Below, one piece after another: positions 1-44,600 of a stretch of DNA of 64,000 nt. The stretch is from Psammoneis japonica. Taxonomy: Eukaryota. The DNA lies in the NCBI GenBank assembly GCA_008632985.1, contig QPGO01000177.1, positions 62,001 to 126,000 of the forward strand, given 5' to 3'. Both the position numbers and the translations under genes were made by a program. Every line of letters begins with the position of its first letter. Positions within the stretch are counted from its first letter, which is position 1. A model generated the notes under the pieces. That model made no database searches. It was not told the origin of the DNA and saw nothing but the letters and a program-made list of their open reading frames with translations.

Positions 1-2790
1 ACATCTTTCTTGCTTGGCTTTCAGGATCAGCACAGGAATTGTCTTCTGGCAAAGGTGCTCATGCATCAGCTCAACAAAAAGAACCTTCAATTTTTTTTGC
101 ATTTCTCACAAATGCATTTTTAACTTCTGGGCCACTGCTGAAGAAAGGTGGGAGCACATGTTCCCCTCAATTGATGTTTTGAGGGAAGCAGTTTGTTCCT
201 GCTTGCACCAAACACTGGTGCCAATGCTGCACAGTGAGTGGGTTGGCAATGGCAACTGTGCCATCCTCCTCTGCGGCCTTTTCATGGCACACTCACAGAA
301 CTCACCCCAAGTCATGTCACCCTCAATCTCTTTTCCTCCACCCTTGAGGTTGTCAAGTGCAGCCAGCCTGAAGTGCTGCCATGATGCAAAGTGAATGATG
401 CTGAGTGCGTGCCATTTTCATGGTTTGCAGCTGGATTCTTGTCATCCTGGTCAGGCAACACTGACTTGGTGTAGCCACACAGATGATTGACAACAGCAGA
501 CAAAATGTCAATGCGATCTTGCACAACTGCCTTTGCATCAACATTGTTTGGTCAAACCAAGGTCAGTGCAAAAATGCTGCATGCTCACGTTGAATCCCAG
601 CAGTCATGCTGAGGTGCAATTCATTGCCTTGCAGACTCCAACTCTTCAACTGCTTGCATCCCATTGTCTCTTCTTTGCTTGTCATGCTTTGTCACTGTTG
701 AGTGTGTCTGGATTGGTGTCAGAAATGTTTGGATGGCATTTCAGCATGATCAAAAGTGCAGCTCTCTTCAACATTTTGTCTTGACAGCTCCACTTTGCAG
801 CCACACTTCTGCAGAGTCATTGTCAGTTGCTGGTGGACAAAGGTGTCAATGGAGCTTTCCAATGGCAATGAAAAGAAACATCACGTGTCACGATTGTTTT
901 CCACCCTTCTCAAGGCCACACAAGCACTCCATTTGTTGTTGTGCATTCACTCCGTCCGCAATGACACTGTTCTCTTCCATCAAATTTGAAACCCATTGAT
1001 GTTGCCACACAGCTTCTTCAACTCTCCACCCATGATTTGGACTCCCTCATCAATGACATGTTGAATTTTGCATTTCAGTGCTCTGCCCACAGGTCTGCTG
1101 GCATCCGTTGGTTGTGAGCACGAGAGTGTTTCCACAAACAGGCAATGCGTGTGTTTTGATGCAAGTGATTTGCAAATGTCAGCAGACACTCATGATGGGC
1201 TTTTGTGCTTCAGCACCCAGGGACGAGCTTTGCAGGTGGATTGGGAAGGTGGGCACAGGTTGCAGTGCAAAAAGCCAAGGATTTTCAACAGAAGCGGTGA
1301 GCAAATGCATGATTTTTTGTCCTTTCTGGCAATTTTCTGTTGACAATTCTGTGTGAATGCACTTCAGAAATGACCACCAATGACTGCTGCATCAAACCAG
1401 CAAACTGCTTTCATTTGCACTTGCCAGTCCTCAGTGATCACTTTTTCCCCTCTGGTCAATCAAGTTTGTCACCTCATGTGGTGAAAGTGCTGTCCCTGTT
1501 GCAGTGGTTGTGACAGTGTGCTTGAATCAACCCCCTTGGCTTCATTTGACTGTTGTTCATTTGCTGAATGGGTTGGCATTTCTGTGCAAGATCCAGCACC
1601 ATTTCCACATGTAAAAACACATTTTCCAATGCCCAACTCATCACATCATCAAGGCTCTCTGCCATTTCACACCTGCCAGTCCTGAACAACCACCCTTCTA
1701 ATTTGCTTGTCAGCAGGTGTCAAGCTCTCACTGCTCTGAGTGGCTGAGTGCAACTGTTCTTTGGTGCCATTGAGGTGCTGTTGGCACTTTGCACCCAGCT
1801 CAAAAAAGAAAACAATGAATCCTTTCCTGTGTCACCTTGCTTCAACCAGTTTTCTCTAGCACGTGTCACTGCAAGGTGGTGCCATGTGTCCAGCCAGCTG
1901 TGCTTGCTTTTGCCACATCCCTGGTTGGGTGCACTGGAAGTGTGGATCAACTGGTGCCATCATTGTGTGTAAGAAGTTGTCCTCTGTTGAGCTGTCCAAA
2001 TCAAAAAAACCCAAGGTCTGCACCAATGTGTCAGCAATGGCACACATCATCTCAAAAACAGAACAAGTGGTGCGTGCATCTTTTCAGGGTGCAACTTGGC
2101 TTGTCTTGTGAAGACCTTGTTTTGTCAGTTGGCATTGTCTTTGCATGTCTCAGGCAGAGCCACAGTTTGAGGGAGCCATTTTGCACAACTGCCCCATGAG
2201 TTGAAAACACAATTCACACAGCAACTGCAAGTTGAGCAGTGCTGCAGCTGCCAGCAATGCTTTGCTTCACCCAGCAAAGAGGTGTGTGCTTGGTGTTCAC
2301 AAGTCAAGCAGTGTGCAACAAACAAGTGCTGGGATTGGCAACATTGTGTTAAAAAACAGCAGCCAGGCCATGCATCCATTGCAAGTTGCATGTTCAAGCA
2401 AAGCTCAAGAAACTCGTTTGCTGTGTCTGACTCACACCAATCACTGAGCTTGGAAACTGCACAGTGGCAATGGCACCATGTTTGAGACAACTCTCTTTTT
2501 TCACACTCTTTGCACAGGAATGCACCAAGACAGGCAAAATGGAAATGTGGTGCACCCCTTGGGCTAAGTGTTCATTTTGCTGAGAAAGTGCGCTCAACAT
2601 GTTACCACTCGAATCAACAGAAGTGACTTGCGATTGTGACTGAAATGTGTGCGTGCCATTTCGAGCCATTGGATTTCACAATGGCATTGTCACCCAGGTG
2701 AAATGCAGCGAACTTTACACACATGTTTTTCTGTTTTGCCAGTCTTGTCTGTCCTTTGTTCTGGGGGTGCCTGCGATGATTCTCGTCGCT
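1..2790. other. TpA/CpG-depleted hypermutated block A (decayed coding/TE-like sequence, family not identified; runs off the window start)
   Basis: About 10 TpA in 2.79 kb by eye, none between about 474 and 1611. CpG is rare and TG/CA abundant. Six-frame ORFs are nearly Tyr-free and Cys/His-rich. Composition returns to normal near 2790. Confidence 0.85.
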
Positions 2791-3768
2791 GCCACTCTAG
2801 AGAGTAGAGGTCAGCCCGATGGGCTTTCTCACAGCAGCTACTCTAGCAGGTGCTTGCTGGTAGACCTGCCGGCACCGATCAGAGATGACAAAAAATCTAA
2901 ATTAGGAGGAGGTGTGGCCCTCATGCTTTCTTGCTGTGTCAGGACCGTGCTTTAAGTGGCCTCTCAGTGACCACGTCGTGAAAAACCAGATGTTCAACGG
3001 CTTCTGTCCACAAAAGAGACAATCAATTTCTTCCAGCTTCCATAAAATATCTTATCTTGCGATGCTCTACTCTAGAAGTTGAATGCGCCAGTGAAACCCG
3101 TTCGTTGTTCCGCATTGAGACGGAAGAAATGAAAATGTGTCGGTGCGCAGAGTGCCACGCATTCATTGCAGAGCTTGCGAGCCCAAAACACGCATCAAGT
3201 CACGGACTACCTCCCTTTCCATCTTGGGTCATGATTCAGGTCCTAGTCAAGCAGCTGGGACAGTTTCCTGTAACGATTATGATCTCACGTCGTTGCACAT
3301 ACTGTAAAAGCAAAAGGACGTCGAACCTTTTCGAGTCGCCATGGCGGACACAAGGCTCGAAAGAAGGAAGGACTCGAACAGGATTCACAAGCCGATTGGG
3401 CTGATTCTACTAGATCATTTCACACGTGTCCGGTCTGCACAAAGTTTTAAACTCCAGGTGAAGACTAGGGCCCCACTGGATGATTTTTTACCCTTTGGTA
3501 CAGATTCACGCAGCCAGAGGCGCACCACCAGTAGCCTCTACGCGAACAATTTGTCGCTTAGTGTGCTTGAAACCTTCAAACAGATTCGAAAGGGTGTCAA
3601 AAGTGACACTTACCTAATGTCAAGGGGGTTTGAGCCAGTTGCGGAAGGCCCGGTGTGCGATCTACAGGAAGGAAATCCTACGAATCCAATCTAACGGAAT
3701 GAGCTCAGTACGATACTTTCGAAGTAAACACGTGGACACTGTATGCGGGAGCATGGCAGCGTGTCGGA

Positions 3769-10600: not shown

Positions 10601-10840
10601 GTTCCTGGTGCGTACTGTGGGTTGGCACTAGATCCACCTCGAAGACTCCAACCTGTCCCGGCACTCAGTCCAAAGGGACTCAAGGCTGCGAAACGCTATG
10701 GCGAAAAGGTCCTTGCCAATGCTGCGATCCCTACAGTGAAAGCCACGCCGAGCGGCGTTAGGTATGCCAGTGATAAACAAGTCAGCGTCATTTACGAAGA
10801 AGGCAACGTTCTGTTCTTTGTGGACGTTCACCCTGAATAA
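7655..10840 (+). CDS. Secreted mucin-like (PSxxPS/PT repeats) protein with two DTYxDGICC modules and a C-terminal leishmanolysin-like zinc metalloprotease; two apparent frameshifts (about 8075 and 8545) and intron 9771-9857
   Basis: HELSH zinc motif, ENSGGAGTAGVHW, DELMSG Met-turn and PLSRITIASLADVGY. P/S/T repeats continue across the frame breaks. Confidence 0.8.
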
Positions 10841-10992
10841 AGCTGCTGCTATTGCTCGAAAATGCTATTGATTCGTGCAGAACAAAAAAAAAACAGAGAA
10901 TTCATTATTCATGCGTCTCACTTTGACAACAAAAACGATAGACTGTAATAGATTTAAACATATCCTTGATGTAATAATATCTTTTTAGACTT

Positions 10993-11390
10993 TTATACCT
11001 TTTGAGATTCCAACAATTCTTCAACAGTCCCGATCAAATGCCGGATGCGGTATTCTTGCTTTGCATTCTTGAGTTTCAATGCTTCATTTTCCGCCTTGAG
11101 AGCCTCTAATTCCTTTGTCGACGTCGACGAAGACCCTTGACCAGCCATTGCTTCTCTGATTTGTCTCAGCTTCAACAGGCATTCTGCTTGCACGGCCTTG
11201 ACTGCTTCCTGCGTTGCATCAAAGCTCTTGCCAATCTCCAACGCCTCAATGCGTTTCTCCAAATCTTCCGTCTGGAGGTTAGACAACAAAATAAAAAAAT
11301 AATGCGTTAGTATGCCTAAGTGATAATGTGCCTTTGGAGAGACGAGATAGAAAGCGAGAACAATCACCCGGTGAGACGTACCGTCGTCAT
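10993..11390 (-). CDS. Small coiled-coil protein (about 96 aa) with a 9-nt first exon
   Basis: ATG ACG ACG|gtacgt...ctccag|ACG GAA GAT gives MTTTEDLEKRIEALE...ENEALKLKNAKQEYRIRHL, with heptad character. Confidence 0.65.
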
Positions 11391-11629
11391 GGCTGATTTT
11401 TTTTTGTTTCGTTTTTTGCGTCGGAGTTGGAGCGGTCGGACGAGTCAAACACAGTCGCGCGAGGAATCTCTACACGGTAGTCTATGTACCGTATGATAGG
11501 CCCTATTCCTACCGGCATCGGCAGGAGCCCGAAAGCGAACTCCCAGAACACTCAAACGCCTGTTCAATTTCCATGACTTTGCGGCTGTGACCGATGGCAC
11601 ACATGATAAGTGCAGGCCTGCAAATCTAA

Positions 11630-12510
11630 ATCAAACTGTGACAACAATGGATGAATGTGCTGGACCTTGTGGGCCTTGTGCGTTTGCCGGGAAAGAAGGG
11701 AGACGAGACTGTGCTCGCATCAAAAAGAGCAGTGGCTGGCAAACTTGTCAGCGAGTGTGGTGGTTTGAGAACACAGCTGGCTTTTGTGTGGCAAACAGCA
11801 CCAGGCATGCAGGGAGAGAGAGGTTCTCTTTGCTTTTTTGTCAAAGCATGCCAGGCGCCACCAACACTGCAATGAGGAGCCGCGCAGCCAAAAATGCGAG
11901 CTCCGTCAAGCGCCTGCTGCGCCTCTCAAGGTCAGCCAAAGGTGGGGCAGCTTTTTTGCACATGAAAGCTGCCATGTCACAATGGTGCACTGAATGCCAA
12001 GTCAACAAAAAGCTGTCTCATGCTGGAGAGAGCCGCCCACAGCATCGAGCGTGTGTGTGGGTGGCAAAAAGATGTTTCTTTCTTTTCAGGCAGGCACCAC
12101 ATTCCTGTGGAAAAGATGAGGCTGAGTGCACCCATGAGATCATTGCCATCATCACTGCAAAGGTGACAATGGCTCTGTGCTTGCTTTTGTGCTCGCCAAT
12201 GCTGCTGCTTGTCTCGCACTGCTGGTGCGCTGCGACAGGAAACAGGAGCACGAGAAAAAATGAGTGAAAATTTTCTTGTTGTGGTGGCCAAAAATTCCGG
12301 TTTTTCATTTTGGGGTTTGTTGTTGATTGCACCCCATCTCTTGGGTGCTGTGAGTTATTAATGCCACATTCAATCTTTGCACATGACAGGCCCAGTGCCA
12401 TGATGCATGCACCGGTGGCAGTTTTTGACGACGCACCGACCCCCAGCTAGCACGCACGACCGCACGACACGCGACACGCACGCGGACACGCACGCGCACA
12501 CGCACAATTT
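11630..12510. other. TpA-depleted block B (short relic; CpG partly retained)
   Basis: No TpA from about 11631 to 12355 although CpGs persist. Ends in an ACGCAC-rich tract at about 12428-12505. Confidence 0.8.
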
Positions 12511-12535
12511 TCAATTTTTCTCGAATGCAACGGCA

Positions 12536-13877
12536 ATGGCGGCGGTCGATAGTTGCGAGAACAAGCAGAATACTATCTGCTATTGTTCTCGCAAGGCTCT
12601 GATTGTAGCAATGGTTGGAGTCGTCTGTGCCTTTGCTGGGTTATCGATTGGGCTCTATTCTCTGTTCAAACCAAGCAGTGATGGCAACTTTCAAGATGGC
12701 ACGCCGTTGAACAGCAAATTCACAAATGCTCCAACTATTATGACTGCAACCCATTCTCCAACAAAAACATTCACCCAGTCTCCAACTTTAATGATGCCTG
12801 ATACGACGTTTAATTTCTGGAGCTCGTCGGATTCTCCATCATGGAGTTTGTCGGATTCTCCAACCGCGGCACCAACCGTTAGAAGTTCTCCCAACCCATC
12901 ACCAGATCCGTTTGAATCATGGCATGCGGTTCCAATCTCAAAACAAGATGGCGCTCAATTCCAAGTTGTTGAAGAGTTATATCACGATACAACTGCCTTT
13001 ACGTGAGTCTTTACTTGTTTTATGTTTGCCGCAATCTCGTCATGTACTCACACATATCGCCTTTCGTTTCTGCATACCTCGTTACAAACATTTTCTAGTC
13101 AAGGACTAACCTTGGGTAAGAATGTCTTGTATGAATCGACCGGTGGATACGGTCGATCCACTGTACGTCGAATCCATCCCGATACAGGAGAGGTTTTGCA
13201 ACAAATATCTATGCCACGCCGACACTTTGGAGAAGGCATGGCGTACGCGGAAAATAACAACGGGGATGAATTGCTGGTACAGTTAACTTGGACCTCACGA
13301 CAGGGTTTCATCTACAATGCCTCCAATCTATCACAACCACCACGTCCCTTTTGGACTGGCACGACTCTAAGTGAAGGCTGGGGCATTGCACACAACCCTG
13401 CCAAACGAGAATTTGTGGCCAGTGACGGGACGCATGTGTTGCATTTCTGGAATGCCACAGCCTTGCTGGAGGATAACGAGGTGCAAGAATTGCGCACCGT
13501 CGAGGTGACCCGACTGGATGGGACGACGCTTGCCAATGAATTGAATGAATTGGAATGGTGGAGAGACCGAATCTTGGCCAATGTCTGGTATGAATATGTC
13601 TTGCTGGTGATTCATCCCGAAACGGGCCAAGTCGAAAAAGAATACGGTGTGTATATAATATGAAAACAGTGTTGGGGGCGTGGCGCTACAGAGTGCCTTG
13701 TACAGAAACTCACATTAGAGTTTTCTTCTTTTTTCTTGTCCAGACTTTTCATCCATCTATCCCAATCCACCACAGGTTTTCAATGGCATTTCCATCTCGG
13801 ACGAGCCAGATGTATTGTACGTGACAGGCAAGAACTGGGACAAAATGTTCAAGATTCGATTGCTACCACTCTTGTAA
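12536..13877 (+). CDS. Glutaminyl-peptide cyclotransferase (plant/bacterial-type glutamine cyclotransferase), type II membrane anchored; 3 exons
   Basis: Introns 13003-13098 and 13647-13743 give HDTTAFTQGL, LYESTG, FGEG, QLTW, EGWG, SDGT, LNELEW, ANVW and LYVTGKNW. Confidence 0.9.
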
Positions 13878-13971
13878 CAGTAGCAAGTGGGAACCATAGA
13901 TGCTGCATAACAACAGATCCAACAATAACTATTCTCATACTTTACTCTACTATTGACGTGATGCATGTTGC

Positions 13972-20190: not shown

Positions 20191-21096
20191 TCATGTATCG
20201 ACTGACCGTGGTTCGATGAATTTCTTGATGTCGTCTAACCCGACTGTTTGTCCTTTGCTCTCAACCACGTTTCTAGTCGCCTCGACGAGTTCATTCTCAG
20301 TCATGATTGGAACGCGACCCCTTGCTCCCCACGACTTTTTTATTGGTTTCCCTTCTCGAATTTTTCGCAGTACCTTGTATACACTCTTATCGCTGGCACA
20401 TGGTACACGTTTCTTCTGTACCATATCGTTGATAATTGCCGATCGCTCTTTCGCGTTCCTTCCTTGAGTTATATCGTAAACTTCTTGTTTGGTGTACTCA
20501 AGCCTGTCTTTTGGTTCGGGGTACGTAAATGCTGTTGCATTTGACCTCTTCTTTTGAGTTGACTCATTTGAATTTTTCGTGTCTCCTTTTCGTTTTTGCG
20601 GGAGTTTGCGGTGACTAGGGGGTGGCGTCTTGATGCGCAAGGCAAGTCGCTCCATCTCAATGCGTTCATTGGGCTTTGTGGAAGCTGCAGCTGGTGGAAT
20701 GTTTTCTCTGTCTTCCCTGTCGTCAGGACTTGGCAGAGACGTTGGTTCAAGATCGGCGACACGCAAAGCACGTGACTGTGCGACTTTCTCCGACGCCGCG
20801 AGCCTTCGATGCGCATACGGAACACCCGGTGTCTTGGATTCTTTCGCAACTATTGCATTTGATTCTACGTCAGCTTTTTCAACAATGGAGAGTGTTTCAC
20901 GAACGATTCTCAGACCATTGCTAGCCTTTTTAAAGTCACATGCAATGCTGTTTCTGTCAAGACTGTGCCAAGTATCTCTCAAAATGGCTTGCTGCTGTCG
21001 AGTGGCTTGCACAAGGTCGGCATTAATAAGTTGAGTTTCAAGTGATTTGTCTTTGGTAGACCTTCTAATGGTAGCATCACTGTCTGTCTTAGTCAT
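20191..21096 (-). mobile_element. Possible truncated transposase N-terminus (pogo/Tc1-like HTH region), no DDE domain
   Basis: Basic helical C-terminal half ending in a W-G-x-R-GR-x-P-I motif typical of transposase DNA-binding regions. The ORF stops abruptly and no TIRs were found. Confidence 0.35.
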
Positions 21097-21702
21097 ATTT
21101 GTTGTTGTAACAAGATCGTTGCGTTTATCGTTCTCCTTTTTTTTTTTTCGACTCGTGTTTTTTGTTGTTTTCGGCGCGCGTGGTCTCGAATGACTCCGGG
21201 GTCATTAGACCTATTTGATGATGTGAGTCGTACGTACGTACTTGTACTACTGTACGCGTACGTACGTGGAATGATGACTGCGATACATCGTTTATGGAAT
21301 ATAGACATAAAGACTTGAGCATTATTAAAATAATCAAAGTCATTACAAAATATCAATTGTTATTGAAGAGAGCGGCAAGACGAAACGGCACTTTTTTGTT
21401 TCCCTTTTTCGCATTCACAACTTCGCGTTTTTCGTTTGTCGTCTCGCGAGATTACCCCCTTGTTCGATCGATCGAGAATCAAGTAGAAAAGATTTATCAA
21501 GTTTGTAACACCGCGAGTGTGGCAACGAAAGATCATGACACCCTTTACTGCATCGCTCATAAGTCGACGCGAAGACTCGTCCCATGCCTCCTTAAGTAAC
21601 GCGGGTTCTCGGTTTGATTCGCGATCTTGGTCGATCGTGCACGATAAATCGCCCTGACGTGCTTCGATGCTAATTTTTTTTTGACAAAGCGAAAAAGGCC
21701 GT

Positions 21703-27927: not shown

Positions 27928-28439
27928 TTTGAGAAAGATTTTGTTTTGGGTGTACATAAGTAGTAACATTTCAGCATGATCGTGTTTCTTCCCTTTCTCA
28001 CAAGGTTCCAAGACACTCTAAGAGTAGTCCCATTACCAGTTGTACTCCAATCAGAAACGACCGCTTCACTTTTCCCAACGTATTGATGGAAACGAAAAAG
28101 ATGCGCTAGTATCACCGTTCCAGGACGCCACACCTCCCTTTCTTTTGAATGTTGTCAGCCATATTCTTGCATTTTTACAATCGCTTTTCATGCCTTGTGC
28201 ACGACGAACTTCGCACCACGATGACATCAGAGGAGGTTAAGAGAAGGAACCACATCGTCGCAGCCGATGTGCCTCTCCCGCCCTGAGCATGAACGACGTC
28301 GGAAGCAGCCTTGCAAAATGCTGTTCAGGCGGGCGTGCTTTGAAAGAGACCGAAGACATTGCGATTGCATGCACGACACGCACGGCACGACGGGTGACTG
28401 TGAAATGCCAATGCAGTTGCCAACGGGGAGAAAACCTCG

Positions 28440-29800
28440 TCTCCAGAGGCACTTGCAAGGCAGATGTCTCTCACCACACCAGCAACGTTTGACAACTTTT
28501 GGAGCTCAGCTCTGGTGGCAGGCCGCTTCAACGGCAGCTCCACACTCAACTCATTCTTTGCTTTCAGCTGGTGCATGGCCACACCACAACTCTCGTTGCA
28601 GGGAGTGTCCCCATTGGGGCACTTGTGCCAGAGACTGGGCCAAGAACCACCACAGTTGTGTGCGTGTCCTTCACAACTTTGTGCATTGCCAAAATGGCAC
28701 TGTCAAAATGAGCTTTTTTCTCATGGAGGACCCCTTTTTCTTGAGCTCTTTTGCCTGTTTGTCCAAGCTGCTCAGCAAGAAGCAGGCACAACAACATTGG
28801 CCAAGGCAGCAAGCCTTTTGTGGTGGCTTTGTCAGCAGCTGGCTGTTGCTGCTGCTGCTGTGGCTGATGTTGTCATGTAAAAAGATCTCAGCAGAGGAGG
28901 GCAGACAAGTTGAGTCAAAGGGCTGGTTTTGGGTTGGCTTGTCTTGACATCTCTCATTCTTTCTTGGTCATTTTCAGGCTCTCTCTCAGTGGCCTCCCTG
29001 TTTGTGGTCTGGCAGGATGAGAGAAGGAAGGTCAAGCTGTAGCAGGCAATTGTGTGGTTGAGCCCAATGTTTTGTTGGTTGTGTTGCCCTCATCATTTGG
29101 GGTGCAGCAGCTCTCCAGTCAAAGCTCTGGCCCTGGTGGTTCCCTGGGTGCCCATGGCTTGCACACCACAACCCCAGCCAAAGAGATTCACAGAGAGGGC
29201 AGTCAGTTGGCAATTCTTGTTTGGCGTGTGTTCCATGGTGGTCATGGTGATTGCAAACAAGACAGAAAAACAGCTGTGTGTGACAAAGATGATGATTTCA
29301 ACATGCAGAAAAATGTGGCCAAATCACCACACACAATGGGTGCCAAAATGTGGCTGCATTGAGGAAAACAAACAGTGCACTGCTGCCCACAACTTTGCAA
29401 ACTGCTGGCATGGGGATGATCTGATGGCATCTGGGACAGATGGTGGTCATGTGCCAGAGGAGAAAGAAAGTGAGCAAAGGAGAGATCATTGGATCTCTCC
29501 AGTCTGTCCATGCCAGTCTGTCCAACACAAGGGAGTGTGCTCGCTGTCTTGGATGTCTGTCAGAGATGGTGGCCTGTGCGCCCCCTCTGTTTCATGTTGC
29601 AGCTTTTGCATTGTCTTGTGTGGTGCAGAAGCATTGCATGAAGCTGTGAGCATCAGCGGACCTGCAGCAACCTCACTTTTTTCTTCCATCATTGTGCATT
29701 GATGAGGGACACAAGAGCTTGAGCACTTGCTTGCAGCCTGCGATGCACGCTTTGCACCCTTTGTAACATTGGCCCTCTGTGAGCCAAAGCTCTGCAGTTC
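28440..29800 (-). pseudogene. Decayed paralog of the ZNFX1-like gene 3' end (RZ finger, RING-like and NF-X1 regions)
   Basis: Minus strand reads QAKELK..AMH..HNCGGSWPSLWHKCPNG..CGVAM..VAGVVRDI versus QAEELN..AMH..YNYGGSWSSHWYECPNG..CGMAM..VGGVVRDI in the 41671 copy (firm for 28464-28790). Weaker matches further on: CPLCESL~CPDCRSL, DPMI~DPII. Confidence 0.8.
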
Positions 29801-30089
29801 TGGGCTCCCCACAGAAATTTGAGCTGCAGCTCAAGGTCTGGGGTTCAGTGTTTGTGGCTTGTGCAGTTGCATGCTGCAACCAACCTGAGCACTCATCCAC
29901 AAACATCAAAGCCACAATGAGCATCTGGTCTGCTGGGAATTTTCCTCAATCAAGGCAGCAAAATCTCCATTGACAGACAGATGCAACACATGGAAAAGAT
30001 GCCAGAGCATGCACAAAATGTGTTCTTACCTGACAATTGTGCAGCCCCTGCTCTGCAGAGTGGCAAAGGCAACCAAGCGTGCAGTGCAT

Positions 30090-31800
30090 CAAGTGCAAGA
30101 CTTTGCCAAGATGTGACAAGCTGTGCTTGTCAGTGGTGTGAAAGGCAAAGCAGTTTTTCTCCTTTCTGGGCTGGTTGTGCACAAAATGACTCTTGTTCAT
30201 CTGGATCCATTTGCTTGCACAGCAAAAATGTGTGAGGGTTGTCTTTGCACAGCACACCCTGCAGGCACTTTGCATCAAACAATTTGCAAATGCTCTGTGC
30301 TTGGTCTCCTTGCACTTCTTGGTTGGGGTCAAATGAGCATCTGTGCCACCCACCAGCAATCCACATGCATCAAAATCATGCGGAAGCATTTTGACAAGCA
30401 GCAGCTGATGGTGAGGGCAGACAAACCACTCTGCAGTCATTTTCAATTGGCCTTTCTGCCAGAAACTCATGGAAGTCCTTTTCACACTCTGTGGCCACCA
30501 TTGCAACCATTGCACACTCTCCATGTGTTGACAACAACCATCTCAAAGACTGAGAAATGAGTGCAGTTGGACCAGCCCTGGGTGCCCAACTTCTGTTTAA
30601 TCTGCAGGTTGCCTTGCCTGCTCCTGTTGTGCTGATCAATCTTTTTGCAAGTGTTGCAGAATTTGTCAAGCTCTTTCCACTCAGGGTCAGCACCCATGCT
30701 GACTTCCTCATCCTGGTGCCAATGACCAACAAACCCTTGAGAGCTTGCCATTCCTGTGTCATCCAGTGACAAAGTGTTGGCAATGGAAAGGTTCTTCCAA
30801 CCACAATCCATCCGGACAAAGGCAAGTTTATCTTCATGACTGTCCAGCCCCAAGGTGAGAACTCCTTGACATTGTCCACACTCGGCAAGCTCAATGCCAC
30901 AGAGATGCTGTGTTGCAACAAACTTCAGCATGACACAGCACAACCATCCAGCCCCAGTGTGATGGCTCCCTGGCATTGTCCATGCTTGGTGAGCTCAACA
31001 CCCTGGAGATGCTGCATCAGAAACTTCTGCATGGCAGTCTCAACAATGCCAACAAATCATGACCTGAAGCAGCACCCCACTTCTTTGACAGTGCCAAACA
31101 ATGCACAAATCTGTGCAGACAATCCAGTCCACATTGGCCCATGGCTGCACAAGTTGTCTCAAGCAACAGCTTCATGAAGCAAGCCACTGTTGTCCTTCCT
31201 AGATGCCAGCATCTTCCAACTTTGCTGTCTTCACCAACTTGAGCTTCAGCATTGCACCACTCTGCTCACATGCCAAATTCTGCATCTCACGTGCATCCTT
31301 GGGCTTGCAATCAACTGCATGCTGTGTGCTGTGGGAGGCCAACATTGATCCAGTGCCCACACCAAGACCACACCACCTTAAGATGGACTCATTGACACAA
31401 ATGTCAGTCAACTGCAAGAAGTTGGTTGTCCGGTTTTGTTTGAATGCCTCCACAAAGTCATCCACCAATTTCCAACTGCACTCTTGAGATGGCATTCCTT
31501 CTGCTGCTCGCTCATCTTGCTGATCACTGAACTGAGCTGAAATGTGCAAGATGTCAAAAACCTGTTTTGTGACATGCCAGTCTTTGCAAATGCCGGTGCT
31601 GCATGACACTTTGATGCGGTTTTGACCAGAGCTCCAACTTGGCATTGAACTCAAACATCATTGCAAGAATGCAAATGCATAAAAACTTCAGCAACTCAGA
31701 CAGATTGGTGTCAGCTGCTTTTCTTTTCCTCAGTTGCGTGCTGTTGGCAAGTGCAACAATTGCACTGAGATGGTTGGTCATGCCTCAATTGAGGTCCTTG
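30090..31800 (-). mobile_element. Decayed piggyBac-family transposase (stramenopile type)
   Basis: Fragments ELLKFL..MFEF..LWS, WKLVDDFVEAF, ICVNESILRWCGLG, LKLKLVKT, LAFVRMD, IDQHNRSRQ..LGTQGWS, HLTPTKK and a Cys-rich tail occur in piggyBac transposase order. Multiple frameshifts; no intact TTAA/TIR found. Confidence 0.85.
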
Positions 31801-32009
31801 GTAGACTGGACACTGGCACTGGCTACCACAGAGACTGCTGGCCACTAGAGAGAGGAGAGAAGAGTCGGAGAGGGATAGAGGGCGATCGACTAGCGACTGC
31901 TGGGATCTTTCATCTTTCACGGGCGGATTGAACCTGTGGGCCGACCCGGCGCCTATCTCTGACCGCTTCAGCGTAACTACGAGTTCCAGCACTAATCCAA
32001 CAGTTGAGC

Positions 32010-35707: not shown

Positions 35708-36289
35708 TCAGTGAGTGGATAGCAAGGCTTTGAAATGTGAGAGGTGAGTGACGAAGTGAGTTGATTGTTTTTGTGATGCCTACGAACGAGCGATGACTGT
35801 CAGTAAAAGGATACCAGCATGACTTCTCTGCGGCATCATATGACATCATTTTCGAGTAGAACTCTACTGTGAACTGTACTACTGTAAAGTGGTCAAGGCA
35901 TAAATCTGAATCGTAATGTCTCGAAATCCAAGGGTCATTTATGTCTATTGCCTATACAAAACCTTGTTAGTCGTAGATTTGACACTTTGCGATACACTCT
36001 GTATTAAGAAATTAGAAGTAGTGATGATGAGCCGGAATCACTCTCGAGGTCTACGGAGAGCAAAAATATCTATAAGGAACATGTATGTTGAGGAAACACA
36101 GATCGTGCTTCCGGTTCTTTTGCCGTCGACAGAGCTCGCTACGAAGTGAATTCGGCGTTCTCGCTCCGCGTTCACCGTTACTCATCAAGGATAGGTGCAG
36201 TACACCGCGAGCCTGGCTTGCGTCGACTTCCCGGAAAGTGACATCATACATCGTCATTCCACCAATCAAATGAAGGGATTTTTTGCGTA

Positions 36290-39200
36290 GCCTTCATTGA
36301 CATTTTCGTGACGCACCCTTTGGGTTTCGCAACGAACAACGTGACTTCCCTTTTGGTCTTGTGGGTCAAAGATGGATTGCAGGTTTGTGGTCGATTTCAT
36401 CATCCGGAGCTTGCAATGAATGGGTTGGGGACTTCCAAAAAAAGCAGATGCGGGCCAGCACTCCATCGCGACTTTAAAAAAAGCGTGCCGCACAGCAGAC
36501 CTGCAGACAAAGTGCAATGAGCTGCCATGTGGCAGAGCTGAGCAGAGCTCCTCATTTGCAGTGTCACACAGTGCACAAGTTGGGCTGGAGCACAGGTGCA
36601 AGCCACGTGCCACAGACCAGCTTCTCCCCATGTCTTGTCTCCCACTTTCAAGCTGCCAGACAAAGCTTTGAACTCTCGCGCAACAGCAAGGACGGACAAC
36701 TGAGTGAGAACCAAACACACAATGAGAGCTCAAAATTGTTGCACACAGCAAGTCGGCATGAAAGTGGCTCTGGTGTGCCCAACAATGAGGATGAGGGCAA
36801 GACCAATCATGCTCAAACTGCAAGTGCACACAACCAAATGGAGGGGCCAATGCACCGCAACAGCCCAAAATTGTTCACAAAAGCCAGCTCAGCAGGACTT
36901 TTTTGTCAAGCTCCAAGTGCAGCCATGGCATGCAAACAATGTGAAAGCAGTCCTGGAGCACACCCAACAATGAGATGAGCATGAGATTGATCATGCTCAA
37001 CTCCAAGGATGCACAACCAAATGAATCACACACACTGATGTTGTCCAAACTTGTTGTGCGAGAGCCAATCTGGATGTTTTTGTCAAGTTCCAAGCAGAGC
37101 CATCATGCACAAACAACATGAAACTGGCTCCAGCACACCCCAACAATGAGCCAAACAAACAAATGTTTGCCCATTTTTGCTGAGCTCACTCCAAGCCCAG
37201 CTGCTGCACACAAACAATGCAAAAGTGGCTTGATGTGCCCAAAAATGAGGACAAGCATGAGGTTGTCAATGAGAAGCACTTCCTGATGCAACCCAGAATG
37301 ATCAGCAGTGCCAGTCACTGACGTCAACCCCACAATCCACAGCTCAATCCATGTCGCTCAGAAAGCTTCAACAATGTGAACAACAAAATGTCAGCACCTT
37401 GCTCTGGAGCATGAGATGAAATGAACAACTGTGAGCAAGACAAGGGCAGGCAACAACACCCCCAAACACACCAAAGCACAACCCTGCTGCACCACAAGTC
37501 GCTTTTGATTTTCTCACCAAAGTGCCACAAACCACACGTGTGAGTCACAGGATGGGGGTTGTCAGTGGGATCAAGAGGTGGTCATCATTGAAGCAAGCAT
37601 CGAAGAGGTGAGCACCACCATTTTCACCGTTGATCATGATTTTTGAATTTGTGTGCTCATTGTTGGAAAAGTGACTGCACCGTGTGGGCATTTTGCTCAA
37701 ATTGCACAAATTTCATGCAACAAAATTTTGAAAAAATGCGCTGCCATCACAGCAATCATGCCATGCACTGTTTGAATCATGTTTTCTCAAAACTCTGCTT
37801 TTTGCTCAAACATGCCATGTTTGAGCAAATGGGGCTCAACATTTGAGCAATCACTCAAACACATGCATTTTTTGAGCAATTGCTCAAACGTGCTGCTCAA
37901 ATTTTGAAAGAAAGAGTCGCAAGCAATTGAGTCCATTGCCCACATTTTTTTGTGCACATGTTCACAATCTTAAAATGCACACAAGTCATTGAAATGACTG
38001 CAATCAGCCATTCTCAGGAATGTTCCTGGTGCTGCATCAACTTGTGTGTGCACATCAACTTGCATGTGCAAGGTGCAGTGTCAGCACACTTCTTCTTTGC
38101 CTTTGCTTCTGGCCTCCAATGCACCCCACACTCTGTTCTTACACCCTCCAGCTTCGGTGGCACCCCAATTGTTCTAAACATGTGGCACTGTGCAGGCAGC
38201 TGCATGGGCATTGGCGCAAAATGGCACTTGTTGTTGTTTGAAAACCCACAGAGCCAAGTGCCACAAAAGCACTTCTTGCTCTGTTCACATTTTCCCATCA
38301 ACCTGAAAATGGCAGGAATGATGCTGCAGTGCCCTCATTTCAGCAGCTGGCAAAGATGACGGGGGGGGGGGGGGGGGGGGCACAGATTACAACCTCAGCT
38401 GCTGATCCACAAAAAAGCCCCACAATGTGTTGCTGGGTGATCAGCAAAAAAGGCACTTGTTTCAGCGGCTGCATCTCATCACACCCCTGCAAATTTTTTA
38501 GAGTGTCAGCAATGCAAAGAGAGAAAAAGTTCACTGCTTGTGAAATGACCCTGTCAGACCAAGCACATCATCAGCAAATGGCAGCCATGAAGCCCAAGCA
38601 AAAGGCACCCCATGGCAGCAAGACACGCCAATGCTTTTTGCCAAGAAGAAGCTGCTTGAGAATGCTGCAGTCAAGTGCAAGATTTTGACATCACATGTTC
38701 CAGCAAGAGGTGCACAATGCCACTGTCCACCACTGGTGGAAGGTTGGGTGGCAGCTGCCCTCTGGACAGAGGACACAAGTGCTGTGAGGGCTCCACACAG
38801 GGAGGTTCAGAAGGCTCAGAACTGGAAAGCTTGCTTTTCCAAAATGAGAACCAAGTGTGCAGAATGAGGTGTCATGGCAGAAGGCAACAAGACTTGGCGG
38901 CCCTCTCTTGGGGTCACCCCACTTCTGCTGGTCTTGTGCACTTCCTTGTTGCTGTGTTTGACCCTCCCTTGATCAGAGAACACAGCATCATTGTCAGCAA
39001 TGGAGGCCAACACACCAATGGCAGGGACAATGGAGGAATGAGACAGCACAGGGGAAGGTGGCCACATGCAGTGCAAGAGCAAACCACTGAAGAAAACAAC
39101 ACATGTTGCCAACATTGCTCTGCACCCCTGGAAAGCTTGCTGGACAAATGGAGTGCAACCTGGAGTGAGTCAGCATTGGAAGCCGGCAAATGCTTGGCAG

Positions 39201-41558
39201 GCAAGTGTCCCAACAATTTGCCACTGGAAGAGTTGGTGTGCTTGTCAATCTGGCACACTTCCTTTGCACCACATTGCTCCCTCCCCTGATCAGAAAATGA
39301 AGGATCATTGGCAGTGATGATGGGCAGGTCCAGAGTGCCATGAAAAGCAAATTTAGATGTGACACAACAGTCCTGACAATGGAGAAAAGGCAGCAAGACT
39401 TGGTGGCCCTCTTTCATGGCCGCCCCGCTTCTGTCAGGCTTGCTCAGATGATGGAACAAGGAATGACGGCATCGCACATCCAAAATTGATGACAGCCGAG
39501 GCAAAAATCTGAAGTTGAGAGACTTGACAACTGGCAATGTGGTGATGATGTGCATCAGTGGCATGCAACAGCATTGCAGGGGCTGCAGGCAGCACAGGCA
39601 CTGTCTTGGGAGGAGACGACAATTCCTCTGTCTTGTGAATGATGCCACCATTGCATGAGACAATGGAGTGACCAGGAACAAGATGCTTTGTGGGTTGAAG
39701 CAAGACACCCTTGATGTTGCAGGGATGTTCCACTGACTTGGCAGGCAATGTCAGGAAACCAGTGCCAACAGTGACAGCAGATGGCATGCCCATTGGCACC
39801 ATGAAAAAATCATCCATGCCAGCTGCAGAAGGATTCCCATCCAAAGACTGCAGAGGTCAAGGCACTTTGAGGAATGAAAACTTGGCAGTGGAAAACTCAT
39901 TCCAGCCCCAATGATTGCATTCCACGTTTGGATCAAAGCGCACATGCAAAACGCGGATCGCAATGATTGCTGCTGTCTCTTGCATCTTGAGGGTCTCTTT
40001 TGGATTGCCACCTAAAGACTCTGGAGAGCAAGACAAGTTTTGTGGAATTCCCCTGGCATGACAACTTGCAAGTCAGCTTTGCAAACAATCAATTTAACCA
40101 AAGAGACATCATGGGGGTGCATGACAAAAGGTGGGATGCCACATTGGGCAACAGGGTCATGGAAGAGCTGTGCAAAAGAGCTCTTGGGTTTGGTGTGATT
40201 CACACCTGCAAAGAAACAGTCAAGATCAACAATTGAGCCTGCACAGTGCATGTTCAAATGCTGCTGAACAAGAGGTTCAGCATCATGACCACAAAAAATG
40301 CACTGAACATTGGGCAAAAATGCCCGTGTGGGCATCTGCAATGTCATCTGGCATCAAGCTGACACTTCTGCATGGAGCATCCCATTGGTGAATGTCACAA
40401 GGCAAAGTGACCTGATGGCAATGATCTTTGGATGCAGTGGGCTCAATGGGGCTCAATGGGCTCTCCATGACACCTGTCACATGCCATGTGTGGCATTGGA
40501 CATCCTCACATGAGTCCACAACAAGATCAGATGTGAAAATTGATGGAGGAGTTTTCTCCAACAATGGCAGAGACAAAACCACTTGGTCAGATGCTTGTGG
40601 TGCAAGGGAGAGCTGGCTTCAGTCTGTGTGATGCCATTGCAGATCAGAGTTGAAGCACATGTGCTCCATGCCAACTGCAATTCATGCTGGCTCTGTCATC
40701 TTGCCAGTGTGGAGAGCAAGTTGGATCTTCTGCTCAAGCGTTTGTCTGGAGAGGCAAGATGTAGAATTGCAAACACTTGGAGCCACAACCTTGAGAGCAG
40801 CTTGGCTGAAGATCAATGCAACAGATGCTGCATCCTTGGGGGTCCTCACACAAGGTGTGATGAACTTGTGAAGGTCATGGTCCCGCACAAGCTCGAAAAC
40901 ACCATCCTTGGCTTGGGTGTGTTTGTTGTCTTCAAAAAACTGATCCAGGTCAAAAATTGTGTCGCCACAAGTTTGCTCAGGAACTTCATGTCATCAGGGA
41001 AATGAGGGCTTTCCTGAAAAACAAAATCAGTTGCAGCGAGTGTGTCAATGATGCTCTTTTCAATCATTGCGATCCGTCATGATGGTGCAAGTGCACAAAA
41101 TTTTTTGATCATGCACACGCAGAAACCTGGTGCTGGTCTGGCAGGGGGCCTGTGAGCCAATGAAACAAGCACTTCCAGGATCAAAACTGGTGGCATGCTT
41201 GTTCAGCTCACAAACCACCCAAAGGAATCTTGGCGCGGGAGTTTCAGTGCAGAGGAACAATGAGAGAGAAGCAGATCTCAGAAAGATCTGCTTGTCTGTC
41301 TGGGTCTGTCCTTCATCCGCATGCTGGCAGCTGCGCTGGTGTTGCCTGTTGTTGCCACCCACATCGCACCCTTGTGACTCTGCTCAATTTACACATGGTG
41401 GTCTGTGTGATGCTTTTTGGCATCTTTTGGCTTTGCTTCCAAACAATGCTCTGCTCAACGCTCATCAGGGGTGCAACGGAAGTCGGCAAAATGGCAATGC
41501 GAAATGCTGTTCCGGCGGGCATGCTTTGAAAGAGACAGACGGACACACACGCATGCTC
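36290..41558. other. TpA/CpG-depleted hypermutated block D (decayed coding relics, degenerate repeats, probable TE end)
   Basis: About 11 TpA in 5.3 kb. Abrupt right edge at ...gcatgctcgt|actgtattgttattacg. Contains a G20 run at 38361-38380. Confidence 0.88.
37690..37905. repeat. Cluster of direct and inverted TTTGAGCAA/TTGCTCAAA motifs (subterminal-repeat-like)
   Basis: About 8 full or partial copies in both orientations, including the palindrome tttgagcaattgctcaaa. Confidence 0.7.
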
Positions 41559-41670
41559 GTACTGTATTGTTATTACGCACGATACCGGTAGATCTATCAC
41601 GAACTCTAAAGAAAAGATGCAGCGAACCATGGTTGCTCCATGGCAATGCTGTAGCTACCGGGGGTGCTGG

Positions 41671-44600
41671 TCAACCTCCTCGCAAGATGTCTCTTACAAC
41701 ACCACCCACTTGACGATTTGTGGAGTTAAGCCGGTGGCTAGCGCCACCAATGACAGCTCCACATTCAATGCATTTGCTTTCGGCCATAGCCATACCACAA
41801 TTCCCTATGAAGTAAGGGTGCCCGTTGGGACACTCGTACCAGTGACTAGACCAAGATCCACCGTAATTATAGCGGTCATTTTCATGCATGGCCGTGACGA
41901 CCTCTGCAAGTAACTTTTTATCGTCAAGGATCCCTCTATTGAGCTCTTCTGCTTGGGACACCATGTCACCAAACTCTCGCGGCAGTCGAATCACCCAGTC
42001 TACAAGTTCAAGCGCCTGTTTCTTCTCATTCTCAGAAAGCGGACTCCACTTAACAAGTAACGAACAGAGGGCTAGTCGAAGCCTAGCTCCAGACTGCTTG
42101 CTTGACGTCTTATCCGCCAACTTTATGCCTCGGTGTAGTGATTCGGCAGCCAGTTTAGCATTCTCGTCGTCCCTGGTCTCAGCCATGCTGGAATAGGCCC
42201 GGCCAAGAAGAGCGAAGGTTCGCAAGAGCGGACGTGCCGGCGGCGTTGGTATATCCAAAACATGAGGGTCTACGCAAGCTTCGTACACCTTCCGCATTGG
42301 GCTCTTGAGTATAATATTCTCTGCCTTTTTCAATACGGTCACCAGGTCTTCACCTCTTGAGCCGCCGCTGGTGCTCATTTCTTCAATTCTGTCAAGCATC
42401 CGATCAACGCTCATTAGATGCTTGCGTTCGAGACTTCGAAGCTCTGAGATTCGTAGCAACCGCCCATATCGATGAATCGAATGAACAAGAGACCTGCAAT
42501 CGGGGCATGACTTCGGCTTTTCGTCGATATTGGCCTGGCAAAGTGGACGAGTACTTGTGTACAACGCGGATTCCTGGTCCTGCTCGTATACTTCGTTCAT
42601 ACCGAGATGCCCATCAAGAGTAGACATTGTATAAAAATGGTTGCAGGGTAGGACAATGATGGGGTCCTGATCAACGTCATGTTCAGCATACGTCCTCAGC
42701 TCAATCATGTCAACGACTTGCTCCCGAAATGACGCAAAGCCGCATTCCTTACAATAACTGGGGGATGGACAGGCTTCACCGCAAAGAGACGGGCACCGAT
42801 GGCCACACTCGAGTTTCTTTTCACATCTCTGCGAACAGAAGAAAAGCAAAAAATTCTGAATCCCGTTCCCATGGCATATAATAGGGTCTTCCAAAATACA
42901 CCTACCTGGTTGCATGGTAGTCTCGAGCAAGGTGCCCCACAGACTTGCTGACAGGATCCGAGGTGCTGACATGCCCAACTGCATTTCTCTACACAAGAAG
43001 AGCACTGTGTGGTCGTCAGCCCCCTTTTCGAAAGAATCCACACCTTCGATACATCAAGTAAACTTACCGGAATCTGGCATTTTCTTGGACAGGACGAATG
43101 CTGGCATTTCACGCCACACGCTTGTTCGCAGGGCGGGCAATCCTTGCTTCCGTGACATGCTCGGCCGCAAATGTGCCCACAAAACATCTTCCGTTCACAT
43201 TTCTGACTGCAGCGATGACCTCTGGTGCATTGGCCACAGCGGTTGCTGCATTCATGACCGCATTCGCGTACCATCATCGAACATCGCCCGGGACACACTG
43301 GCTTGGTGCTTCTCGCATTGGCGCACGTTGTGACTAGTTGATGGTCACACGGGCTGAATGCATACGTTACCGCCTGTTGGCACGTCATGGTTAAGACCTT
43401 GAGGGCTTTTTTATTTCGAGCATCGTGGCATGCGACACTCTTTCGCGAATGTCCACATTCTAGCGTGATTGGCCCAACCTGTTCTGTGCACCTCCCGCAT
43501 TCGTCTTTGCACAGTTTGCGACAGCGGTGACCCAAATGGCATTCGGGAGGTATCCTCTTACACGGCTCACAACAGCCTGTTTGTACCAGTTCATGCTCTT
43601 GATCACACGGATGACACATCAAAGGACAAACATGACCACATTCCATCCGACGTCTGCACGGTCTGTGACAGCCACCATTTGGACGGAGACTCCGAAAGTC
43701 TTGCACACTCGACAGCCCCATGACCTTATCGTCTCGATGAAGCTCACAAACTGTGGGAAGACCCCTCAACAGACTGCCCCTTTGCTTGAAATTGTCAAGG
43801 ATAGGTTCCCACAAATGGCGCCCCTTTTTGGAAAGGCGAAGCGTCGATGCGCTGCCGATAAGGAACAGTCCGAGTCGAGCTCGGGACATTAATACGTTCA
43901 CACGTTCTTCCTCTTTCAGGAATCCGATATTCCCATGTTGATTAGACCGGACTAGGGAAGAGACAATGATGTCAGCTTCTTCACCCTGGAAATTGTCCAC
44001 TGAACTGCACCGCACCTTTCTACTGTTTCTGCTTTCTATCCTCTCGATGGCGTCTTCGTCGCCCAGAGTTTCGAGGTCACGTTGATCTTTTTCTCCTACA
44101 AACGCAGTCGCCTCTTTTAAGCGGGATCGCATGAGCCCCATAATTACGCGTAGCTGACCCAGATACGGGGTCAGCACTACCACCCGGTGCGGTGTATAAC
44201 CTTGCATCAAGAAAAACCTTACAATTTCAACGCACAGCTCTCCCTCGGAATAATTGGACTTGGTTTTGCTATGTCCGCCTCCTTCGTTCTCGCCGGCATT
44301 TCCATCTTCTTTGAATTTGTGGTCGATGAAAACCACGTTGCTGGTGACTCCCTTAACGTTGGGAAACGCCATCACCGACGGATGGTCCTGTAGCAACGGA
44401 TACGTTTGAGCCCTTACGAACTGAGATATTTCTGGTCTCATTCGATGTTGAATTCCAAGTGTAACAGATGGCAGCTTGGACAAAATGAGCCGTTCGAAGA
44501 GGGAGCAGTCTAGCTTGTATCCACTGCCAGAGACGGTGCTTAGCGCGTAGGTTTCCACCTTGGGCCTAAGCTGCTGGTGATCTCCTATCAGTATCAAGTG

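Follow-up and report, generated by a model that had tools for sequence, protein, structure and literature searches.

Introduction

Hypermutation restricted to the TpA dinucleotide is known so far from a single 2026 preprint on one chlorarachniophyte, Bigelowiella natans. According to that preprint, 230 of the 231 mutations recorded in two silent, integrated viral regions of mutation-accumulation lines were transitions of the A>G or T>C type, every one at a TpA step, and arose at a rate ~1,000 times that found elsewhere; the integrated DNA comes from giant viruses and virophages, an adenine deaminase is proposed as the agent, and a defensive role against silent or foreign DNA is suggested for the process (Mettrop et al., bioRxiv 10.64898/2026.01.13.699255). 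This was the sole paper on the signature that we found in the full-text literature, where our searches met no account of TpA being erased in diatoms. Diatom DNMT4 enzymes, in turn, are reported to group with RID, a factor of RIP (PMC9998398).

Here we describe, in a gene-dense eukaryotic window of 64,000 nucleotides with 48% G+C, four nearly TpA-free stretches: block A (121-2565), tract B (11628-12355), block C (28239-31680), and block D (36289-41560). Blocks A, C, and D are also depleted in CpG (O/E 0.12-0.22), while tract B and the rims of the blocks lack TpA where CpG is only partly lost or is present at its normal density (Table 1). We consider it probable (roughly 70%) that tract B and the rims are DNA rewritten by a TpA-specific A:T>G:C transition process, which is independent of CpG decay and is at least ~5 times faster than that decay, wider than it, or both. 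The dinucleotide bookkeeping, the direction of the change, the offsets at the edges, and the independence from CpG loss are read directly from the window. A saturated footprint of this kind in a diatom-like genome would widen the range of lineages in which TpA-specific hypermutation occurs.

Table 1. Coordinates of tract B, of the cores and rims of blocks A, C, and D, and of the neighboring and homologous features in the window.
Feature	Position	Strand	Basis or content
Core of block A, TpA and CpG both erased	121..2590	.	TpA O/E 0.04, CpG O/E 0.12 (over 121-2565)
Right rim of block A, CpG normal, TpA sparse	2591..2797	.	2 TpA, 10 CpG in 207 bp
Putative 5' end of divergent left-hand gene (ATG ~11391, then intron)	10993..11391	-	Deduced from sequence and ORF list
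Tract B, TpA-free intergenic DNA, CpG halved and clustered	11628..12355	.	TpA and CpG counts, change-points
Right extension of tract B, TpA-poor, very CpG-rich, up to the putative start codon	12356..12549	.	3 TpA (12356, 12359, 12448)
ACGC/CACG-type microsatellite-like tract	12451..12505	+	TRF periods 4, 12, 24
Putative first exon of glutamine cyclotransferase gene, putative start codon at 12536	12536..13006	+	ORF; start read from sequence
Left rim of block C, TpA-free, CpG at or above background	28239..28532	.	Change-points
Dead, diverged copy of ZNFX1-like gene 3' end and downstream DNA, spanning rim and core of block C	28287..28757	-	Collapsed blastn, E 4e-45
Core of block C	28533..31801	.	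TpA O/E 0.04, CpG O/E 0.18 (over 28239-31680)
Left rim of block D	36289..36489	.	Change-points
Core of block D, with ~180-bp tandem array at 36744-37265	36490..41458	.	TpA O/E 0.03, CpG O/E 0.22 (over 36289-41560)
Right rim of block D, homologous to part of the left rim of block C	41459..41559	.	Change-points, identity
Live counterpart: downstream DNA and 3' coding end of ZNFX1-like gene (ORF 41671-43053, minus)	41471..41955	-	Collapsed blastn, alignment

An Intergenic Tract Without TpA

Tract B sits between two divergently oriented genes. The right-hand one encodes a glutamine cyclotransferase, and its next exon (13100-13657) has 77 relatives, in all of which PF05096 is found. Only one member of this set bears the name of a eukaryote, a diatom of the Bacillariaceae, which is a weak hint that the window is from a diatom.

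TpA occurs at 11627 and again at 12356, on either side of the tract, with none in the 729-bp gap between them, where 27.5 would be expected. The background, comprising all sequence outside the four stretches, carries 38.1 TpA and 57.9 CpG per kb (CpG O/E 1.00). When 48,570 windows of 729 bp were taken from the background, 0 were free of TpA (minimum 6, mean 27.5), and the longest TpA-free gap outside the four stretches is 289 bp, compared with up to 1,496 bp inside them. Maximum-likelihood change-points for the tract fall at 11628 (11511-11684) and 12356 (12300-12550). The same tract has 21 CpG (O/E 0.45), and again 0 of the 48,570 background windows have this few (mean 42.4). An initial annotation of this DNA had described about 725 bp with zero TpA and roughly 20 CpG retained; both counts hold, but "retained" overstates the second of them, given that CpG is at half of its background density. 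CpG in tract B is halved, i.e., partly decayed, and is not intact.

To the right of the tract, 27 CpG lie within 12413-12547, and TpA density recovers just past the putative start codon at 12536, with the first TpA at 12550. The initial annotation also remarked that a tract in this region looks like a converted form of the tacgtacgta-type tract at about 21228-21267. An ACGC-rich tract does exist at 12451-12505, but its likeness to the other (81.7% over 60 nt, matching 21212-21268) appears only after YpR collapse, in which all pyrimidine-purine steps are written as one symbol. Any alternating tract passes this collapsed test, and the descent of the ACGC tract from a TACG-type tract is no more than plausible, by analogy. 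A precedent is found in the pair of gene copies described below, in which TACG and GATAC on the gene side (41574 and 41583) correspond to CACG and GGCAC in the dead copy.

All of tract B is reproduced by a Logan contig of run X1 (7,282 bp, depth 59) that spans 9800-14200 and differs from the window by one substitution (11416) and 1-bp insertions at 11498 and 11675, none of which creates a TpA. This agreement excludes a polishing error; X1 may be the assembly's own source, so both sequences may represent one isolate. In two sediment metagenomes (runs X3 and X4), only 13003-13275 and a low-complexity piece at 12473-12506 were covered, and not tract B, and a metagenome scan with the protein of the neighboring gene gave 52 pattern matches, of which 0 were confirmed.

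The tract shows little resemblance to other DNA. Its 255-aa open frame had 0 relatives among 1.84 billion representatives in a phmmer search, and this frame is no evidence of coding, since a stop-free run of 212 codons arises in 8.6% of 2,000 shuffles that preserve dinucleotide content. A search for RNA families in Rfam returned one sub-threshold match (E = 0.15). Neither terminal inverted repeats (score 25, null 23.2, sd 3.4) nor an internal duplication (score 40.5, null 32.8, sd 4.6, maximum 50) stood out from their null expectations, and the tandem repeats detected at the tract were the microsatellite and a 9-bp unit. Searches for a paralogue within the window by plain and YpR-collapsed blastn returned only weak or low-complexity matches, and a look-up among other windows returned 0. 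Because the tract is without an ancestor or paralogue for comparison, its former TpA content is deduced from dinucleotide bookkeeping alone.

The surviving CpG of tract B are unevenly placed, with a periodogram peak at 175 bp (power 9.04). A power this high arose in 0.08% of 2,421 random thinnings to 21 CpG (807 background windows, each thinned 3 times) and in 0.5% of sets of uniformly placed sites, and the autocorrelation of the sequence at 165-185 bp revealed no repeat matching the spacing. As the pattern was spotted before it was tested, and tract B is the sole tract of its kind in the window, the 175-bp spacing is a lead only.

Conversion of TpA to TpG and CpA

The sum of all YpR steps (TA+CG+CA+TG) is 240.5 per kb in the background (sd 13, in 729-bp windows), and amounts to 243 in tract B, 252 in block A, and 248 in both block C and block D. 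As this total is conserved, the loss of TpA and CpG equals the gain of CA+TG, which indicates conversion rather than avoidance. CA+TG is raised 1.5-1.65-fold in the mutated DNA, reaching 214 per kb in tract B compared with 144.5 in the background; in the rims, it is up by 40.7 per kb and TpA is down by 34.3 per kb, with CpG unchanged. AA+TT is undepleted, at 158.8 per kb in the cores, 169.0 in tract B, and 156.4 in the rims, compared with 159.8 in the background. Taken together, the conserved YpR total and the undepleted AA and TT point to a strictly TpA-specific transition process, in which A:T pairs are touched within TpA only.

Along the four stretches, the order of TG and CA is near random (runs-test z of -0.25, -1.5, +0.7, and +2.6, compared with -2.9 to +1.7 in the background), and the runs test detected no strand-coordinated clusters of TG versus CA. 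Such an order fits independent hits at single sites on either strand, and not processive bursts on a single strand. The 28 TpA that survive in these stretches have a biased sequence context: 2 are in ATA or TAT, compared with 884 of 1,961 in the background (binomial p = 1.4e-5), and 7 are in TTAA, compared with 77 of 1,961. It seems that TpA with a T after the A is mutated most readily, and TpA with an A after the A least. TpA is intact, by contrast, in a 96%-identical tandem duplicate of 364 bp that lies beside block C (32016-32679).

Overhang of the TpA-Poor Domain

The TpA-poor domain overhangs the CpG-poor core by 101-294 bp at four of the five block edges, and the support intervals for TpA and CpG are disjoint at three of the five. 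On the left of block C, the change-points are at 28239 (28177-28295) for TpA and at 28533 (28392-28611) for CpG, an offset of +294 bp; on the left of block D, they are at 36289 (36248-36345) and 36490 (36485-36532), an offset of +201 bp; and on its right, CpG changes at 41459 (41309-41477) and TpA at 41560 (41504-41560), an offset of +101 bp. On the right of block A, the offset is +207 bp (CpG 2591, TpA 2798), with overlapping support intervals. On the right of block C, TpA changes at 31802 and CpG at 31866, so that the offset is -64 bp and there is no overhang. Support intervals are ~56-289 bp wide, and are widest on the right of block A. In the comparison of TpA and CpG boundaries suggested by the initial annotation, carried out on the edges within the window, the TpA boundary thus lies outside the CpG boundary at four of five edges, the exception being the right of block C.

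The same annotation had claimed CpG-rich, TpA-poor margins beside blocks C and D, and these margins are real: single rims are modest, while the five edges pooled lie beyond background variation. In 28240-28400 there are 0 TpA and 16 CpG (O/E 1.17), in 36290-36500 there are 1 TpA and 12 CpG (O/E 0.92), and in 41470-41558 there are 0 TpA and 7 CpG (O/E 1.06); TpA counts this low are found in fractions of 0.010, 0.017, and 0.056 of the background windows, respectively. With the five edges pooled, the first 100 bp beyond the CpG change-points contain 5 TpA compared with 19.0 in the background (sd 5.5), a value as low as which occurs in only 0.1% of 20,000 draws. Conversely, the 100-bp segments just inside the outer limits of the TpA-poor domains contain 27 CpG in all, compared with 29.1 in the background and 3.6 (sd 2.1) in block interiors, from which 0 of 20,000 draws reached 27. 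In a metaplot of the five edges, TpA rises from 2 to 54 per kb within one 100-bp bin, while inward CpG falls over successive 100-bp bins through 54, 44, 18, 16, 12, and 8 per kb. The four rims together (803 bp) have 3.8 TpA and 61.3 CpG per kb, compared with 38.1 and 57.9 in the background. No viral or transposon domain was recognized by Pfam in the six-frame read-through translations of the four stretches, with 0 of 24 giving a match at E <= 0.01.

When both losses are modelled as first-order decay, the exposure of the rims is 2.3 (1.25-3.9) for TpA and at most 0.25 for CpG, a rate ratio of at least ~5, and that of tract B is at least 2.0 for TpA and 0.70 (0.28-1.18) for CpG. The rims have 49 CpG where 46.5 are expected (105%), with 90% of their TpA gone. 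A graded dose combined with a rate ratio of at least 5, and a TpA domain that is physically wider, fit the data (five edges and tract B) equally well. The view of the initial annotation that TpA conversion is faster or wider than 5mC decay, and is no mere by-product of it, is supported by these values, as TpA loss is near-complete where CpG loss is absent or partial.

A Live Gene and Its Dead Copy

The rim and core of block C can be compared with a live sequence, given that both are spanned by a dead copy that corresponds to the 3' end of the intact ZNFX1-like gene next to block D. Over 446 aligned positions, of which the rim part is partly gappy, 305 are identical (68%), 90 differ by transitions, and 51 by transversions; no homology was detected beyond 28757 (score 37, reversed control 36.5). 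Of 24 aligned TpA in the live sequence, 0 are kept in the dead copy, with 7 read as TG, 7 as CA, 2 as CG, and 8 as other dinucleotides, whereas 7 of 23 aligned CpG are kept, with 8 read as CA, 4 as TG, and 4 as others (Fisher p = 0.004 for TpA kept versus CpG kept).

Because the copy spans both zones of block C, its rim and inner parts are of one age. In the rim part (28287-28461), TpA is kept at 0 of 9 positions and CpG at 6 of 12; in the inner part (28462-28757), TpA is kept at 0 of 15 and CpG at 1 of 11, with CG>TG/CA at 9 of the 11 aligned CpG (Fisher p = 0.069 for CpG kept in the rim versus the inner part). Between the right rim of block D and the left rim of block C, 41498-41539 and 28312-28353 are 90% identical, and all 4 differences are CG in one versus CA or TG in the other.

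Alternative Explanations

The two losses could come from one mutator with two substrates, i.e., a deaminase-type activity that attacks A in TpA fast and C in CpG slowly, at a dose that falls toward the edges; CpG loss would then not be methylation decay, and the rims and tract B would be low-dose zones. Both losses do converge on TG and CA in the same blocks, and in the metaplot CpG declines by degrees over ~400 bp behind an abrupt TpA edge. A ratio of rates of 5 or more suits rims, tract B, and cores alike, and ADAT2 enzymes with activity on A as well as C in DNA are cited in the Bigelowiella preprint. We nevertheless regard a single mutator as unlikely, because in the Bigelowiella hypermutations reported there 230 of 231 are at TpA and none at CpG, because the rims show no detectable attack on C where nine-tenths of the TpA is gone, and because the ~175-bp spacing of CpG in tract B alongside uniform TpA loss suggests that the two are controlled differently in space. 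In the diatom Phaeodactylum, moreover, DNMT5a is reported as an established methylase of CpG in silent DNA (PMC9998398). The opposite dependence, in which T:G mismatches from 5mC deamination would recruit error-prone patch repair and so produce A>G changes nearby, beyond the methylated core, draws on an overhang of 100-300 bp that is about the length of a repair patch, and on the coincidence of TpA and CpG loss in all three large blocks. Polymerase eta, which acts in phase 2 of antibody hypermutation, prefers WA and produces A>G at both TA and AA. Its signature is absent here, with AA+TT at 156-169 per kb in mutated DNA compared with 159.8 in the background, so the target is TpA only and not WA, which argues against error-prone repair of deaminated CpG as the cause of TpA loss. 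Tract B has in addition lost all of its ~27 TpA with only ~21 CpG events, the rims have lost most of theirs without CpG loss of their own, and TpA hypermutation in Bigelowiella is described without accompanying C>T, all of which make a by-product of CpG decay very improbable.

Tract B could instead be a shared promoter or 5'-UTR, and the rims UTRs, in which TpA is natively scarce or is avoided for a function such as RNA stability, nucleosome exclusion, or the avoidance of TA-targeting insertions. The position of the tract between divergent genes, the end of its TpA-poor zone near the putative start codon at 12536, and the distance of only 111 bp from the right rim of block D to a stop codon speak for such selection. 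Other intergenic DNA in the window is, however, rich in TpA (15 in 11251-11500, 33 in 21001-21500, and 43 in 56001-56500), and no 729-bp background window has fewer than 6. The tract also resembles the dead blocks in its excess of CA+TG and its unchanged YpR total, non-functional DNA has undergone this change in the dead gene copy, and the one Rfam match to the tract (E = 0.15) is below threshold; we therefore give selection or native composition hardly any credence. A technical origin, through miscalls at modified bases or polishing errors that turn real TA into TG or CA, would find some encouragement in the two 1-bp insertions between the window and the X1 contig, which are of the homopolymer type of assembly error. 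It is extremely improbable, in that the depth-59 k-mer contig from X1 restores no TpA in the tract, and the effect respects gene boundaries and adjoins normal, TpA-rich DNA in the same contig.

Proposed Process and Implications

We propose that TpA is converted to TpG on one strand and to CpA on the other, in place, within sharply bounded, putatively silent domains, and that single sites would be hit one by one on either strand. A separate CG>TG/CA decay, probably the deamination of methylated CpG, would empty the cores of the blocks; per site, the TpA process would be at least ~5 times faster, or its domain would reach 100-300 bp (~one to two nucleosomes) past this CpG-decaying core, or both. 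With the TpA process faster or wider, a small domain such as tract B (0.73-0.92 kb) would end up TpA-free with half of its CpG lost. The candidate enzyme is of the kind that the Bigelowiella preprint proposes, a DNA adenine deaminase with 5'-TpA as its site (A>I>G), and its targeting may depend on chromatin or silencing state.

A more specific and rather doubtful version of the proposed process is that two epigenetic maps are recorded in one sequence, TpA erasure tracing the full extent of a chromatin state (e.g., a histone mark) and CpG decay tracing its methylated part. The chromatin state might then guide a DNA adenine deaminase to ~one nucleosome past the methylated DNA, and CpG decay in tract B, phased at ~175 bp, might reflect methylation on the scale of nucleosomes. 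In other algae, DNMT5 has been associated with methylation at this scale. If this version is true, the TpA and CpG footprints in bare genome sequence would give the extent of heterochromatin, the phasing of methylation, and the relative age of silencing, and the mutator would act as far as the very start codon of a functional gene.

More generally, the independence of the TpA process from CpG decay removes the simplest explanation, i.e., that it is a by-product of methylation. As a practical rule, TpA loss would be the sign of silencing that comes sooner and spans more of the domain. TpA-erased DNA is misread by annotation tools that count on TAA or TAG stops, or on tyrosine codons, and promoters that adjoin silent DNA can be rewritten almost as far as the start codon.

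Comparison With Known Systems

Of the processes that may be compared with this one, the decay of methylated CpG matches the CG>TG/CA changes at 12 of the 23 aligned CpG in the dead copy, where methylation is presumed. It cannot remove TpA, however, and its footprint here is narrower than that of TpA loss, and graded at the edges. A>I hyperediting by ADAR and DNA editing by ADAT2 resemble the present signature, as they are discussed in the Bigelowiella preprint, in producing A>G with T or U directly 5' of the edited A. ADAR, in contrast, is metazoan and acts on double-stranded RNA, whereas the changes described here are in genomic DNA, in place, and include DNA that is not from retroelements.

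RIP, as known in Neurospora and other ascomycetes, is the closest parallel in logic, in that regional, dinucleotide-specific transitions ruin silent or redundant DNA. It also leaks into adjoining single-copy DNA, which resembles the overhang found here. The chemistry runs the opposite way, as RIP makes TpA from CpA, while here TpA is destroyed and CA+TG is raised, and strand-coordinated runs are lacking here. On duplication as a trigger, the observations go both ways: the 96%-identical duplicate at 32016-32679 is untouched and tract B has no detectable second copy, yet the mutated dead gene copy is itself a duplicate.

The closest likeness is to the viral regions of Bigelowiella as reported in the preprint, in which only TpA is affected, is turned into TpG or CpA depending on the strand, and is lost in discrete regions beside normal DNA, with a long-term trace of TpA depletion and a linear rise of CpA+TpG. 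Several differences are apparent from the same source. The process was measured there directly in lines, and is deduced here from sequence; TpA was about halved there (Rho 0.45), compared with an O/E of 0-0.04 here; and the targets there are identified viral insertions, whereas here, in a diatom-like lineage, they include a fragment of a host gene and an intergenic tract, and show no viral or transposon domain in Pfam searches. The words "CpG" and "diatom", and the strings "boundar" and "flank", are absent from the main text of the preprint, so that the relation to CpG and the overhang at the edges are not covered in that text. Newly described here are the overhang of TpA loss at the edges, the 175-bp period among the CpG left in tract B, and the sequence contexts in which TpA persists.

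Spacing of CpG and Context of TpA

Tract B, an intergenic stretch (11628-12355) from which TpA is absent, retains 21 CpG. They are grouped at a spacing of about 175 bp, a period with a power of 9.04 in the periodogram. This power was matched by just 0.08% of 2,421 thinned draws, each holding 21 CpG and taken three per window from 807 windows of background DNA (outside the erased blocks). A search of tract B for a sequence repeat with a period of about 175 bp found none. The clustering may reflect a nucleosome-scale pattern of CpG decay.

In blocks A, C, and D, where both TpA and CpG have been erased, and in the extension of tract B (12356-12549), 28 TpA survive (e.g., at 1612, 12359, 30598, and 36475). 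An ATA/TAT context is rare among them, surrounding just 2 of the 28, against 884 of the 1,961 background TpA, while TTAA is enriched among the survivors (7/28 vs. 77/1,961). These contexts hint at a 3′-neighbor preference of the putative mutator, a proposed process of TpA to TpG/CpA transition.

Repeats and Coding Features

Tandem repeats occur both beside and within the erased blocks, and short CACG/ACGC-rich tracts lie at three rims, TpA-poor margins that retain CpG (Table). The young duplication, 200-900 bp to the right of block C, has kept its TpA, and two of the differences between its copies read as TA vs. TG/CA; at this locus, duplication by itself has not set off erasure. Both degenerate arrays show better once pyrimidine-purine steps are collapsed.

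Table. Repeats and CACG/ACGC-rich tracts in and around the erased blocks.
Feature	Position	Description
Young tandem duplication	32016-32679	Period 364 bp, copies 96% identical
Degenerate tandem array	36744-37265	~180 bp; inside erased block D
Degenerate tandem array	30835-31036	~104 bp; inside erased block C
Short CACG/ACGC-rich tract	12451-12505	B-right rim, CpG-retaining
Short CACG/ACGC-rich tract	28374-28395	C-left rim, CpG-retaining
Short CACG/ACGC-rich tract	41540-41556	D-right rim, CpG-retaining

Elsewhere, a single open frame of 2,080 codons (21685-27927) is made up of 411-423-bp repeat units with 64-89% mutual identity. Across the 3 kb at 51000-54000, which are apparently coding, A strongly exceeds T (skew 0.30-0.43).

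Assembly Check and Occurrence in Sediment

The window and a depth-59 contig from sequencing run X1 differ by one T>C and two single-base insertions (11416, 11498, and 11675), which look like small assembly errors. Contigs of 151 bp from two sediment metagenome runs, X3 and X4 (possibly one data set deposited twice), match the glutamine cyclotransferase gene (13003-13275) with 0-1 differences. Judging by sequence matches, this organism or a close relative seems to be present in sediment.
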